Made by a program: the position numbers and the translations under genes. This document shows positions 32,405 through 57,490 of a stretch of DNA of 64,000 nt, in pieces. Each line of letters begins with the position of its first letter. The stretch's first letter is position 1. A model generated the notes under the pieces. The model ran no database searches. It saw only the letters and a list, made by a program, of their open reading frames with translations, and had not been told where the DNA came from. This DNA is from an uncultured Solirubrobacterales bacterium (GTDB lineage Bacteria > Actinomycetota > Thermoleophilia > Solirubrobacterales > Solirubrobacteraceae), in NCBI GenBank assembly GCA_963806475.1, contig CAWDYK010000013.1:211905-275904 (forward strand). The letters run 5' to 3'.

Positions 32405-32774
32405 TTAGGTTTCAGCCTCGCTCCCGGCCGCCATGCGAGCGGCTGACCAGGTCTCGAACAGCGTGCTCACGACGCTCGGCGACGGCCAGTGGCCCCGCGC
32501 CAGCCGCCGCTGAGACTCCCCTCCTCTGGCTCGCGCGTGTGTGCGCGACCAGTCGTACGACGACGGCAACCGGCCGTACCGCTCGACGCCAGTCGAGCAT
32601 CGCCTCGACCACGAGCTCCCGGGTCCAGCGGCGCTCGATTGCGCCGGGATGGCAGGACTTGCAGTACGCGTACGCGTCGCCCTTGCCGTTGCGCGGCTGG
32701 GTGTAGGCGCCGCAGCCGCGGCACACGCCGACGTACCGGGCCTTGACCGCGCGCGCCTTCTCTCCGGTCGGGTC
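32405..32774 (-). pseudogene. 3' half of HTH/Zn-finger gene A (split by the serine-recombinase element)
   Basis: DPTGEKARAVKARYVGVCRGCG..YCKSCHPG..WTRELVVEAM..PSSYDW; no start; homologous to 53461-53824. Confidence 0.85.
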
Positions 32775-32790
32775 TGATGCATCTAAAGGG
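32755..32790. other. Hybrid att site, left junction of the LSR element
   Basis: Gene half CCGGTC-GGG joined to the element arm TCTGATGCATCTAAAG. Confidence 0.75.
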
Positions 32791-32824
32791 CGTAGCGTGC
32801 CCGAGGTACCGAGAGGAGCCCGCT

Positions 32825-34224
32825 GTGACCAGCAAGCCCCGTGCCGTCGCCGTCGTCCGTGTCAGCGCTCAGGGCGACCGCGCAGAGGAGCACTTCCACT
32901 CTCCCGAAGTGCAGCTCGACAGCGCCAAGCGGTGGGCGCGCAAGCGCCGCGAGCGGTTCGTCGCGCACTTCCCCGAGATCGACGTCTCGGGCAAGCGCCC
33001 GCTCGTCAAGCGCCCCGGCCTGCTCAGGGCCGTCGAGATGATCGAGGCCCGTCAGGCTGACCACATCGTCGTCGCCTATTTCGACCGGCTGGTGCGGTCG
33101 CTGAAGGTGCAGCTGGAGGTGATCGAGCGGGTCGAGAGGGCTGGTGGCGAGATCTTCGCGCTGGACCACGGCAAGCTGACGAACGGGACCGCCGCCACTC
33201 GCCTGTCGACGAACATGATGGGTGCGGTGTTCCAGTACTTCGCCGAGGTGACGGGCGAGAAGGTGACGGCCGCGCAGGCGCGCGCGGTGGCGCGCGGGGT
33301 GCTGCCGAACTCGCGGATCGTGCCCGGATACATGCGCGGCGAGGACGGTGTGCTGGTGGTCGTGCCTGAGCTGGCGCCAGCCGTGCGCGAGGTATTCCAG
33401 CGCCGCGACCGGGGCGCCACGATCGTCGAGCTGCAGGCGTTCCTGCTCGAGCGCGGGATCGAGCGGTCGGTCGCAGGTGTGGCATCGATGTTGCGCTCGC
33501 GGATGTACCTCGGCGAGATCCATTTCGGCGAGCTGCACAACCCGAGCGCTCATGAGCCGATCATCACCGATCGCGGCCTATTCGAGCGCGTGCAGCGGCG
33601 GACGGTCATGCGCGGGCGCCAAGCCAAGTCCGAGCGGCTGTTGGCGCGTCTCGGTGTGTTGCGCTGCGGGACGTGCGGGTCGCGGATGGTGATCAACAGC
33701 TACAGCGGCAACTACCGCTGCGGTGACACGAGCGCGAACCCGTGCCGGGGACGAGCGGCGGTCAAGGCCGACCGCGTCGAGGAGATCGTGCTGGACGCGC
33801 TCCGGGCGTACTCGGCTGTGGCCGACGCGCACGGACGGGCGTCGCGCAAGCAGCAGATCCGCGAGGCGGACGAGGCGATCGAACGCGCCAACGCAGATCT
33901 CGATGACACGATCCGCCAACTCGGCGAGCTTGGATTGTTGGGCCGGCCCGCTAGCCAGCAGACCCTGGAGAAGCTGACCAAGACGCTCGACGACGCCCAC
34001 AGCGCCCGGGCCCGACTCGGCGATGAGGGCGAGAGCGATGTCATCGGCCCTGACGAGATCGACAAGCTGCGCGACCCCGCAAAGCGCTTAGCGGCTTGGC
34101 GACGGCTGATCACACACCGATCGAGTCGGTTACGGTCGCGCCGGCGATGACGGCGGATGGGCGACCCAGTCGCCTCTGGGACCCTCGCCGAATCGACATC
34201 AGGTTCCGGGGCCAGCATCCATAA
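32825..34224 (+). CDS. Large serine recombinase (frameshift near 34112)
   Basis: VRVS catalytic Ser, DVSGK..RPGL, FDRLVRS, recombinase domain, Zn ribbon LRCGTCG..YRC. Confidence 0.93.
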
Positions 34225-35332
34225 GGAAGCCGCCAGCAGCCGACTTCTCGCGCTTCCGTCAACACATCCTCCGGTCGCACGACTCGCACACTCTGCCGAC
34301 CGTCGCCGAGTCCGCCGTCGTCGTCGGGCACAACTTCCCCGACCGCAAGAAGCAACGAAGCGACACCGGCGATCGCCGGTGTTGTGAAATTCGTCCCTTC
34401 CCGCAGCGACGTTGGAGTCGCTGCGGGTGGCTGCTTCGCCGCGCGAGTGACAGTTACGTGCGCTTGCAAGTCAGCGCGGACCGGGCTCCCAGCAAGCACA
34501 TCCGCGGCTCCCGCAACCGCGGCAAAGCGGGCGCTCACGTCGGCCGGTCACGCCGCCGGGCCACCGAGGACGCGGCCAGTCGCGCCAGTGGCGAGATGCG
34601 AGACGGACGTCGTCGACGGTGCCAGACCTGCTTTCGTGTTCGCCCGGGCCTACGGCGTTCGCGTGGCTCCCTCTGTCCGATTCCGGCAGTTAGCGCGCTG
34701 GCGGCGTCGATGCTGCTTTCCTGCTTGCAACCTTCCGGCGATCAGCAAGCACCGGCTCATCGAGCTCGGCCGCAACGAACTTCGAGGCTCGTGTGTCCTT
34801 TCCGCGCATAGCTGGTCCGCGCCGGTCAAGCTCGTGATGCTCGTGACGGACAGAGAGCAGGTGTCTCGCGACGAATCCCACGCTTTCCAGCACGAGGAAC
34901 CGCTGCTGCGTCAACGCCTAATCGGTCAGCGGGAGTGGTGGCCGCTTCCTTCTGACATCGGCAGTCTCGTTCCCGCCCCGACAAGGTGCCGACGTCCGCG
35001 ACTACATGTGGCGAGCAGCCGAACTGCGTCGTGGCTAGCACTTCGGGCCGGTCGCGCTGTGGCGTGGAGCAGCGCGACGTGCCGCGACTGCGCCGTCCCT
35101 CTTTTGCCGTCAACGTGGAACGTCTCGGCTCGCGACGTTGCCGCGGGATAGGTTCCACCCGGGGCGTGTTAGTCGATTGAGAGGTTGCCGCTGTCCGTGG
35201 GAGCGTCGAGCGTCGCCCGTTGACCGAGCGCAGCACTCGTCTTCTGGTCCGGCTTGCGGCAGGTGGCGAGCTTTGCCGGGGTGTTGCAGGCAGCGGGTTT
35301 CGGCGCTTGCGGGCGGCGATCCGATGAAGTGC

Positions 35333-56400: not shown

Positions 56401-56554
56401 TCCACGAGAGCCGCACCCTTTAGAGATACGCCTTGACGGTCGCTTCTGCGCGTCCCAGCCGACGAGCGATCTCCGCGATCGACAGACCCTCCCCGTCGCG
56501 GTAGTAGCGGGCGAGTTGCGCCGCGCGGCGTCGTTCCACGACACGGTCGAGCAT
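53461..56554 (-). CDS. HTH/Zn-finger gene B (exon 1 56554-56421; exon 2 53824-53461), interrupted by an IS and a group II intron
   Basis: Joined exons read MLDRVVERRR..GLSIAEIARRLGRAEATVKAYL-Y-DPTGDKARAVKARYRGMCRGCG..YCKRC.. in frame. Confidence 0.88.
53825..54506 (-). mobile_element. ORF-less group II intron (IIA-like), copy 1
   Basis: DV GAGAGCCCGGUGAUCAGAAAUGGUCACGCCGGGUUCGG, DVI with bulged A, J2/3 GGA, residual ORF start MQNAETVLSVLRE, EBS loop. Confidence 0.9.
54514..56419 (-). mobile_element. ISKra4-family insertion sequence
   Basis: Terminal inverted repeats AGGGTGCGGCTC(C/T)C(C)GTGGAGGG; 8-bp TSD TTAGAGAT at 54506-54513 and 56420-56427. Confidence 0.9.
54539..56170 (-). CDS. ISKra4-family transposase
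   Basis: [50 protein letters not shown]; intact. Confidence 0.9.
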   Translation of the reverse strand: [543 protein letters not shown]

Positions 56555-56619
56555 CAGACCCCAAGCCCACCGGAGGTGCTGGACGGCCCGCTCAAGTGCA
56601 GTCAGCGCGCGGGGCCATC

Positions 56620-56650
56620 TGAAGGTCTTTTGTTATCATCAGAGGGGCCG
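56620..56650. other. Hybrid att site, right junction of the LSR element (split by intron copy 2)
   Basis: Element arm CTTTTGTTATCATCAGA-GGGG; the gene A half continues after 57332. Confidence 0.75.
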
Positions 56651-57332
56651 GCTGAGGTAGGGCCTCGGCGAGGTGCCTTGTGGTCCTTTTCCGAGACCCC
56701 CCTCCCGAACCCGGCGTGACCATTTCTGATCACCGGGCTCTCCAGTGACTACTCCGTGTTTGTTCACGGAAGACACTCAATACCGTTTCGGCGTTCTGCA
56801 TTACGCATACCTCCCGGTTCTCGGATGTCCAGTCACCTGTGCTCCTTCGCCCTGTGGACGGCTTTCCCGTCCTCCTTGGTGCGGCGTGAATCGCACGACT
56901 ACTATGGGCACTCCGTCACCCTGGGACTCGCGCCCCGAGGGTTGATCCCGCGTTCGTCCCTGTCGTACGTCCGAGCGTGACTTAGGCGTCCGACTCATCT
57001 CCTTAATTGCCCTCACTGGGCAACGCTCCACGCTCCAAAGGTTGCAGCGACCTTTCTACGATGCCGCCGCAGAGCATGGCGCCGGTCTCGGGTGCCTTTC
57101 CGACGGACGGGCCTTTGCGTCTTCTGGAGATTCGGCTTCAGGCAATCCAGCTTTCGCCATATCACGCGGGTCCCACGACACCCCGGCCCTGACACCTGGG
57201 CCGACCGCCGTTTTGCTGGCATGCGCTTGTTCCGTTCACCTCTCGGATCCGGGTAAGCCATCAGACCCACGAACCTTCCTTCGAGTTCGTCCCGGCTGCG
57301 CCGGGGATACAACAGGGCGCCTCGCGGCGCAT
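56651..57332 (-). mobile_element. ORF-less group II intron, copy 2
   Basis: 682 nt; only one substitution versus copy 1 noticed by eye (GGAGGAC vs GGAAGAC). Confidence 0.9.
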
Positions 57333-57490
57333 TAGAAGTACGCCTTGATCGTCGCCGGGGAGCGACCGAGCCGGTCAGCGATCTGTCGGATCGAGAGGCC
57401 CTCGAACTCGCGGTAGTGCTGCGCCAGGGCGACCGCCCGGCGCCGCTCAAGAACCCGATCGGGAACTGCGGCTAGCGCCTTGCTGGTCAC
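57333..57490 (-). pseudogene. 5' half (HTH) of gene A
   Basis: GTG MTSKALAAVPDRVLERRRAVALAQHYREFEGLSIRQIADRLGRSPATIKAYF(Y). Confidence 0.85.

Follow-up and report, generated by a model that had tools for sequence, protein, structure and literature searches.

The 64,000-nucleotide stretch of DNA studied here (contig CAWDYK010000013.1 of an uncultured Solirubrobacterales bacterium, positions 211,905 to 275,904; hereafter the window) contains a mobile element that encodes a large serine recombinase (LSR) and lies between the two halves of a split gene, designated gene A. We regard this element as probably a decayed member of a family of minimal LSR islands that integrate in the Pro codon of the conserved YDPTG motif of one small HTH/Zn-finger target gene and usually carry a paralog of that gene, designated gene B; the carried copy likely restores a predicted DNA-binding function that is lost on insertion. 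Integration at a fixed codon and the presence of a full-length paralog just inside the left attachment site (attL), both proposed in a first-pass annotation of the window, hold family-wide, and both the fixed codon and the conserved spare are well supported by the comparisons presented below.

Results

Split of the target gene next to the recombinase

The target gene family comprised 2,444 clusters of proteins of approximately 165 aa, and its named matches belonged to Solirubrobacteraceae. The gene was present in 41 of the 91 genomes of the genus and the studied LSR clade in 15 of the 91, while a sample of 301 genomes taken across the class yielded the gene in two, both of the same genus. Of 103 LSR loci detected in species-representative genomes, the best 80 were compared, 76 of them with usable upstream DNA; the genus counts and the 80-locus tally include an unpublished genome (G162/G517), which requires the permission of its depositors and on which no conclusion rests alone. 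In 70 of the 76 loci, the 3′ half of the gene began at one shared Asp-Pro position, and the LSR start was 38-51 bp away from it. The remaining six comprised one variant junction, three loci in which the arm was interrupted and gene sequence was located further out, and two without the gene. The split of the target gene beside an LSR is real and general.

In the locus L145 (G157:C5), an intact gene ranked first among the compared intact genes for both halves found in the window, with 82% identity to the 5′ half. The identity between this locus and the window was 89% across 4.0 kb, through an excisionase-like gene (xis) and a tyrosine integrase in identical order, ending at a tRNA gene. Because the gene is intact and the identity extends through to the tRNA gene, L145 was taken as the empty orthologous island. 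The 3′ half of gene A in the window carries a +1 frameshift near 32585.

Read along the minus strand, the element is ordered as gene A 5′ half, intron, attL, gene B with its insertions, arsenic-type cargo, LSR, attR and gene A 3′ half (Table 1). As previously described, the two halves of gene A (57490-57333 and 32774-32405) are both located on the minus strand, approximately 24 kb apart, and the LSR begins at 32825, about 50 bp from the core. The earlier layout holds, however, only once two introns and one insertion sequence (IS) that were absent from it are disregarded. The halves of gene A are not directly adjacent to the element arms: a 682-nt ORF-less group II intron is located 4 nt to the left of the attL core. 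Gene A breaks off after ...KAYF at 57333, and four more host bases follow the intron before the CC. The Asp at 32774, read earlier as the start of the 3′ half (DPTGEK), is supplied by the element arm, and the left half reads Tyr-Gly before the core. An unsplit gene reading Tyr-Gly-Pro at the site, as the gene A allele of the window does, was found in L319 (G540:C5 near 503559). Gene B is co-oriented with the truncated gene, its start located 47 nt past the stop of the cut host frame (intron excluded), but it is not continuous in the window. The description of gene B as full-length is valid across the family, whereas the window copy is interrupted by an ISKra4-family IS and a second intron.

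Recombinase, attachment sites and crossover

The recombinase carries the Resolvase, Recombinase and Zn-ribbon domains of the LSR family (Pfam), and the residues R12-V13-S14 were invariant in 24 relatives. Its frame in the window encodes 441 aa versus 464-466 aa in most relatives, with a net loss of 1 nt near 34113-34120. The previous suggestion that the element ends form a symmetric site was borne out: the inner arms are inverted repeats about a CC/GG core (32771-32770 and 56646-56645) and pair at 11 of 18 positions, including seven of the first eight, a level of 11/18 that was reached by 0.5% of 200,000 random window pairs. In 16 complete elements, the mean attP symmetry was 10.75/18 compared to 5.1 by chance, and the same arm followed ...Y[FL]YDP in 78 distinct attL junctions. 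The third base of the Asp codon at attL and the third base of the Pro codon at attR vary with the host; because both track the host, we infer that strands are exchanged at the CC dinucleotide of the Pro codon.

In 46 P′ arms, an A-purine-A-purine-G motif was located at position +14; in the host halves of attR it was located at +9 (54 halves). This matches the LSR model in which the motif is shifted by 5 bp between attP and attB (PMC3783163), the shift being clear on the right arm and less clear on the attB left arm. The sites thus combine a 2-bp core without target duplication, a symmetric attP and a motif located 5 bp closer to the core in attB. The degenerate attP motif had no exact match in viral contigs, and no attP was present in the fetched loci, where the single match was a mutated attL.

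The attL cores were nearly always CC, unlike those of attR, in several of which the dinucleotide was changed to CT, AC or GC (e.g., L009, L016, L017, L026, L035, L040, L041 and L068); the altered cores are possibly locking mutations or products of mismatched integration. In L310 (G533:C16 near 1100), the 19-bp attL inner arm was inverted in place between short inverted repeats. Other insertions, several of them IS-like, occurred repeatedly in or beside the att arms (L025, L038, L049, L044, L104 and L102).

The target protein and its host islands

The target protein contains an N-terminal helix-turn-helix (HTH), which matched Sigma70_r4_2 in 18/18 members (the first member below the cutoff), and four conserved cysteines; a weak HNH_repeat match (PF18780) was obtained for 9/18 members. 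The cut is positioned just after the HTH, and the att core lies exactly between the HTH half and the Zn/HNH-repeat half of the gene. We consider the product to be a predicted DNA-binding or regulatory protein. A GHKL-type ATPase was encoded downstream of 22 attR halves and 15 intact resident genes (the copies belonging to the host islands), and tyrosine integrase/xis clusters also recurred downstream of attR halves and residents. Based on these downstream GHKL-ATPase and/or xis-tyrosine integrase genes, the target gene is assigned to tyrosine-integrase islands, and the LSR element is, as judged from gene content, a passenger inside them.

The commonest downstream neighbour of the residents, an uncharacterised GHKL/HSP90-like ATPase (L056:7597-9327 and G000 C25/C12), had no PADLOC match. 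A tblastn search with the target gene returned no match in 50,697 phage or 72,556 plasmid records; on this ground, and with only one LSR locus found in viral contigs, a phage or plasmid origin was rejected. A role in defence was likewise rejected, no PADLOC match being obtained for three proteins.

Gene B as the conserved companion of the recombinase

Twenty elements carried attL, gene B and LSR-attR in this order on one contig, spanning 10-62 kb. ORF clustering of 22 element regions indicated that only the LSR was widely shared (20/22; next best 5); gene B was missed by the ORF filter and was seen by tblastn. Most of the cargo is not common among LSR elements, and the shared genes are the LSR and gene B only. 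No relaxase or conjugation genes were detected in the Pfam scan of 56 window ORFs, and the relatives, compared by the same clustering, shared no cluster besides the LSR, unlike integrative and mobilizable or conjugative elements (IMEs, ICEs).

Among 90 intact B-type genes with at least 400 bp of upstream DNA (a set that includes near-duplicates and was partly collected with gene B as a query), 60 had an attL within 400 bp and 15 had one further out, and for 15 none was found in the 0.5-6 kb available. In contrast, none of the 35 resident-type genes had an attL within 400 bp. In a tree of 199 3′ halves, all 61 intact genes located directly behind attL fell into one 102-tip clade (support 0.78; inner 100-tip node 0.999). 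The dN/dS ratio was 0.19 among the B genes (67 sequences) and 0.20 among the residents (21 sequences); by this measure, gene B is under purifying selection, as the residents are. In the genus sample, gene B adjoined 20 of the 27 left ends examined (a hand tally covering part of the ends in the sampled genomes). A conserved non-coding stretch of 200-400 bp followed attL in L309, L311, L312, L174, L176-L155 and L285, with gene B absent or located 2.5-21 kb further in. The LSR subtypes paired with differing spacer types, which suggests that the element ends may have been reassorted.

Of 78 distinct attL junctions, 63 had gene B within 420 bp. The stop of the cut host frame overlapped the B start codon in 20 of these 63, at three spacer lengths: in 12 junctions, the TGA of the cut frame overlapped the ATG of gene B by four bases (30-nt spacer), and in eight the overlap was of one base (87-90 and 168-nt spacers). 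The overlap counts include related, non-independent copies. This arrangement points to translational coupling of gene B to the cut host frame, from the host promoter. At longer spacers, a conserved motif ended approximately 10 nt before the B ATG, and some resident subtypes shared it; we take it to resemble an actinobacterial -10 element. A sigma-70 scan of 56400-57700 found no promoter. The earlier proposal that gene B is under the promoter of the broken gene is consequently supported in part: the overlapping junctions favour it, while the longer-spacer types have their own promoter-like motif and gene B can be situated 2.5-21 kb inside the element.

Gene B as a secondary integration site

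The first-pass annotation had further proposed that gene B provides a new attB, making the element a self-renewing landing pad. B-type half-sites have been recombined, but rarely: B-clade halves at attR amounted to 3/58 by tree (G159:C12, G168:C19 and G158:C15) and 5/77 by score, B-type halves at attL to 2/80, and there was one filled/empty pair (L207 and L236). The members of this pair were 99.85% identical over 9.8 kb, from the outer attL to a B-type 5′ half, and parted exactly at the CC, beyond which L207 continued with a new arm and a new gene B, and L236 as a complete gene whose 3′ half is of the resident type, with a tyrosine integrase next to it downstream. Both are metagenome contigs, for which a mis-join is possible, and the empty form is a B 5′/resident 3′ hybrid. 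Five loci held the opposite hybrids (resident 5′, B 3′, no attL), in which the resident sequence extended as far as position -3; in one locus (G177:C3), the LSR was in place 9.5 kb downstream. Both hybrid types would be the expected leftovers of excision between the att sites of nested elements.

The codon at +8..+10 was GAG in 66 of 72 resident attR halves and GAT/GAC in 62 of 102 B copies; GAT/GAC was present in 1 of 77 attR halves, and all five B-scoring attR halves had GAG/GAA. Most B alleles, including that of the window (GAT), may thus be poor targets for the LSR. B copies are also younger than residents, which would lower their chance of being hit. The re-use of gene B as a landing pad appears from these counts to occur but to be secondary, and in the window the site is blocked by the intron and the IS.

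Several candidates for nesting were rejected, either because a B-type gene was split by introns and not by an LSR (G155:C36, G155:C16 and G158:C13) or because the elements were tandem neighbours with a target gene each (G160:C5, G161:C5, G176:C21 and G168:C19). G153:C15 carried two attR units in series, with no attL within 140 kb. Split genes showed no significant mismatch of their left half with their right half (median rank 16 versus 8, p=0.14). In 21 intact residents, linkage was lower near the core (rho 0.17-0.27 versus 0.31-0.58 in other windows), which is only suggestive, as the core stretch is conserved.

Group II introns and the insertion sequence

The two introns of the window are 682 nt long, have their ORF deleted, differ by 1 nt and form direct repeats 2.8 kb apart. 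They were assigned to group II on the basis of domain V/VI (RF00029; folding z -5.0) and of a reverse transcriptase (RT)-maturase in relatives; the relative in L017 matched TIGR04416 at 254.5, below the cutoff of 300, and carried Pfam RVT_1, maturase and HNH domains. Canonical group II introns have the ends GUGYG...AY, unlike the window copies, which read ATGCG...AGC and contained no 8-nt complement of the 5′ exon within one mismatch. A search of G000 for a close RT helper of the ORF-less intron was negative, the best candidate reaching 32-52% in pieces.

Among 27 intron 5′ junctions in the loci, 15 were at the site 4 nt left of the core, seven near codon 83-84 and five elsewhere. The 15 core-site junctions were spread over seven genomes, in residents, gene B and attL, and were mostly of ORF-less introns; ORF-bearing relatives used the second site near codon 83-84 of the target gene. 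The one codon is a shared hotspot for the LSR, the group II intron and insertion sequences. The double intron arrangement of the window was also present, without the IS, in G155:C36. In L158-L159 (G158:C13:934160-937060), a resident-type 5′ half was followed by an intron and a B-clade 3′ half, which would be the product expected of recombination between two intron copies.

The IS was assigned to the ISKra4 family by NF033572 (NCBIfam; 325 bits versus a cutoff of 205), its inverted ends and its target duplication. The duplication (56428-56419 and 54514-54506) may include the first base of the intron, and the intron would on this account be older than the IS. The element of the window is probably fixed in place, since an intron in attL would block excision, and its gene B is probably inactive because of the IS insertion.

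Features of the window

Table 1. Coordinates of the features of the element and its host island in the window.
Feature	Position	Strand	Basis
Gene A 5′ half (HTH, sigma70-region-4-like), resident of the outer tyrosine-integrase island	57333..57490	-	Pfam HTH
Group II intron without ORF (copy 1), 4 nt to the left of the attL core	56651..57332	-	Rfam RF00029, 53.9 bits
attL: last host bases, CC core (56646-56645), inner P′ arm	56627..56650	-	sequence
Gene B 5′ part (element-borne paralog), start 56554; promoter-like motif directly upstream	56421..56554	-	
ISKra4-family IS interrupting gene B, with inverted ends of 21 bp and the target duplication TATCTCTA(A)	54515..56420	-	NF033572
Group II intron without ORF (copy 2), at the corresponding position of gene B	53825..54506	-	1 nt from copy 1
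Gene B 3′ part: Cys4 Zn-finger-like motif and HNH-repeat-like helical domain	53461..53824	-	B clade
Variable cargo	35415..52553		Pfam: ArsR, LMW phosphatase/ArsC-like, MIP, ArsD, ArsA, methyltransferase, SLAC1, LuxR, cupin
LSR (Resolvase + Recombinase + Zn ribbon), frame break near 34113-34120	32825..34226	+	Pfam
attR: inner P arm, CC core (32771-32770)	32770..32791	-	
Gene A 3′ half, +1 frameshift near 32585	32405..32771	-	
Host-island genes: excisionase-like gene, tyrosine integrase (split frame)	30357..32269	-	Pfam Phage_integrase; PHROG 66 weak
tRNA gene, end of the host island	28741..28812	+	Rfam RF00005

The gene B 3′ part was 95% identical to intact 165-aa proteins and was placed in the B clade of the tree. 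The cargo appears to be of the arsenic-resistance type. Frame breaks were present in the LSR, the gene A 3′ half, the tyrosine integrase and several cargo genes, and some of them may be assembly errors. The genome encodes a second LSR (C25), 95% identical and with the same attR junction, and a partial third one (C12). The assembly contained no tRNA 3′ repeat that would mark the opposite boundary of the host island. The surroundings of the host-island tRNA gene, with the large SRP RNA, dnaX, ybaB and recR (25969-26235 and 23312-26104), were the same in L145.

Discussion

The proposed course of events would start from the observation that the junctions lie at one codon, where host and element bases switch at CC. 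The LSR would recombine a symmetric attP with the target gene serving as attB. The target appears in other mobile islands, upstream of GHKL-ATPase and/or xis-tyrosine integrase genes, and the LSR elements have only the LSR and gene B in common. Gene B would then owe its expression either to read-through combined with translational coupling to the cut frame or to a promoter that it has captured, and would complement the host island; the passenger likely needs this island in order to spread. On rare occasions, B half-sites have been recombined as well, with nested elements and hybrid genes that change type at CC as the outcome, which is likely a by-product. In the window, the intron in attL and the intron and IS in gene B would block excision and re-use.

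Among the purposes of gene B that we weighed, complementation is probably the right one, and several results count against it. Many genomes contain several resident paralogs, which lowers the need for a replacement in cis. No relative of the target protein with a solved structure was found. Seven of the 27 left ends in the genus sample had no gene B within approximately 18-24 kb, and, as loci were gathered partly with gene B as a query and related genomes are not independent, the frequencies of gene B outside that sample are inflated. The reads expected of an excised circle or an empty site were found in part: intact-gene continuation at 32774 was seen, from relatives, but no attP circle appeared in four sequencing runs; as these contained only relatives, at about a quarter of the words, the negative carries little weight.

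Gene B might instead be a core component of the element's recombination module (a regulator or directionality factor) or a takeover regulator, the element cutting the resident paralog and putting its own version in place so as to rewire the host island. We consider this unlikely, even though gene B forms a single lineage apart from the residents that are hit, is the only gene retained besides the LSR, and would face away from the LSR across attP in the excised circle, and no separate directionality factor is conserved. Against it, gene B is missing next to 7/27 left ends, gene B and the residents are equally constrained, residents are common in genomes of the genus in which the LSR clade was not found (41/91 versus 15/91), and the coupling of the B start to the cut host frame matters only when the element is integrated. 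Less likely still is the model of the first-pass annotation, in which gene B is kept as a fresh attB and elements accrete inside one another. The L207/L236 pair, the B-clade halves at three attR sites and the hybrids switching at the core speak for it; however, B-type halves are scarce at both att sites despite the abundance of B-type genes, the +8..+10 codon of most B copies is nearly absent from attR halves, the pair is open to a mis-join and its empty form is itself a hybrid, and protein-level constraint is needless for a DNA site. The remaining alternative, that a single capture from an adjacent island made gene B a passenger, kept by its linkage to the att end and without a role for the element, is already disfavoured and receives the lowest probability. 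The upstream motif shared with some resident subtypes, the elements without gene B and the broken copy of the window would fit such a history, but the dN/dS of 0.19, the retention of gene B while other cargo turns over and the recurrence of stop/start overlaps at three spacer lengths do not.

The literature searched gave no description of a family combining such an LSR with gene B; an earlier mention is possible in Mageeney et al. 2020, who searched for islands encoding a homolog of their own target gene (as cited in PMC10111431). Comparisons with published systems are limited here to the available portions of the sources. The closest in strategy is tRNA-dependent lysogeny (Guerrero-Bustamante and Hatfull, PMC10865867), in which integration at a short core destroys the target and an intact carried copy was experimentally shown to complement the split essential tRNA. 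That system consists of temperate phages whose tyrosine integrase splits a tRNA gene, whereas here non-phage islands use a serine integrase, the target is an accessory protein-coding gene, the copy is located at attL and complementation is proposed from sequence. The helper-embedded phage-inducible chromosomal island (HE-PICI) 11capE likewise integrates in and disrupts a gene that belongs to a different mobile element, in this case a late gene of a prophage, and carries a homolog of it (PMC10111431). For 11capE, the homolog is described as having diverged too far at the site to permit self-integration, whereas gene B keeps a near-intact att site that is sometimes used; the present elements moreover have an LSR, lack the PICI gene set and share no primase or replication gene, and their target is regulator-like, belongs to tyrosine-integrase islands, has no match in phage records and lies beside xis/integrase or GHKL genes.

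Streptococcal IMEs encode serine integrases that insert in traG, maff2 and snf2 of Tn5252-family ICEs, and show site-specific accretion (PMC5357655, PMC5704250). They resemble the present family in that elements with an LSR insert into conserved genes belonging to a larger mobile element and accumulate at att sites, but they encode relaxases, the disruption is described without a replacement copy, and accretion takes place in the attL/attR of the resident element and not in a carried paralog. Other site-specific LSRs (Durrant et al., PMC10083194; PMC3783163) share the domain order, the 2-bp core, the single target family and the 5-bp shift. Four Solirubrobacterales-related names were absent from eight supplementary files of PMC10083194, and the portions of these papers that were consulted described no carried paralog. 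We rate the strategy of carrying a spare as known, and its version with a serine integrase and a protein-coding target as new.

The position of the core between the two halves of the target gene allows a more speculative view, which we hold only tentatively and as improbable: the LSR would be a regulator-swapping and domain-shuffling machine that disables the regulator of an island and installs its own allele, mostly tuned against re-insertion, with cross-excision between nested or tandem att sites giving rise to hybrid regulators and new cargo combinations. If true, soil Solirubrobacteraceae would possess a two-gene, integron-like platform, at which group II intron homing locks elements in. 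More generally, the strategy of breaking a gene and bringing a spare would be extended from the tRNA and capsid targets of tyrosine integrases to a serine integrase and a protein-coding target, with the spare placed at attL and frequently coupled to the remnant of the gene that was broken. In one soil genus, this family is common and moves 10-62 kb of cargo such as arsenic resistance; it offers numerous intact LSRs whose att sites have been mapped, together with natural attB variants.

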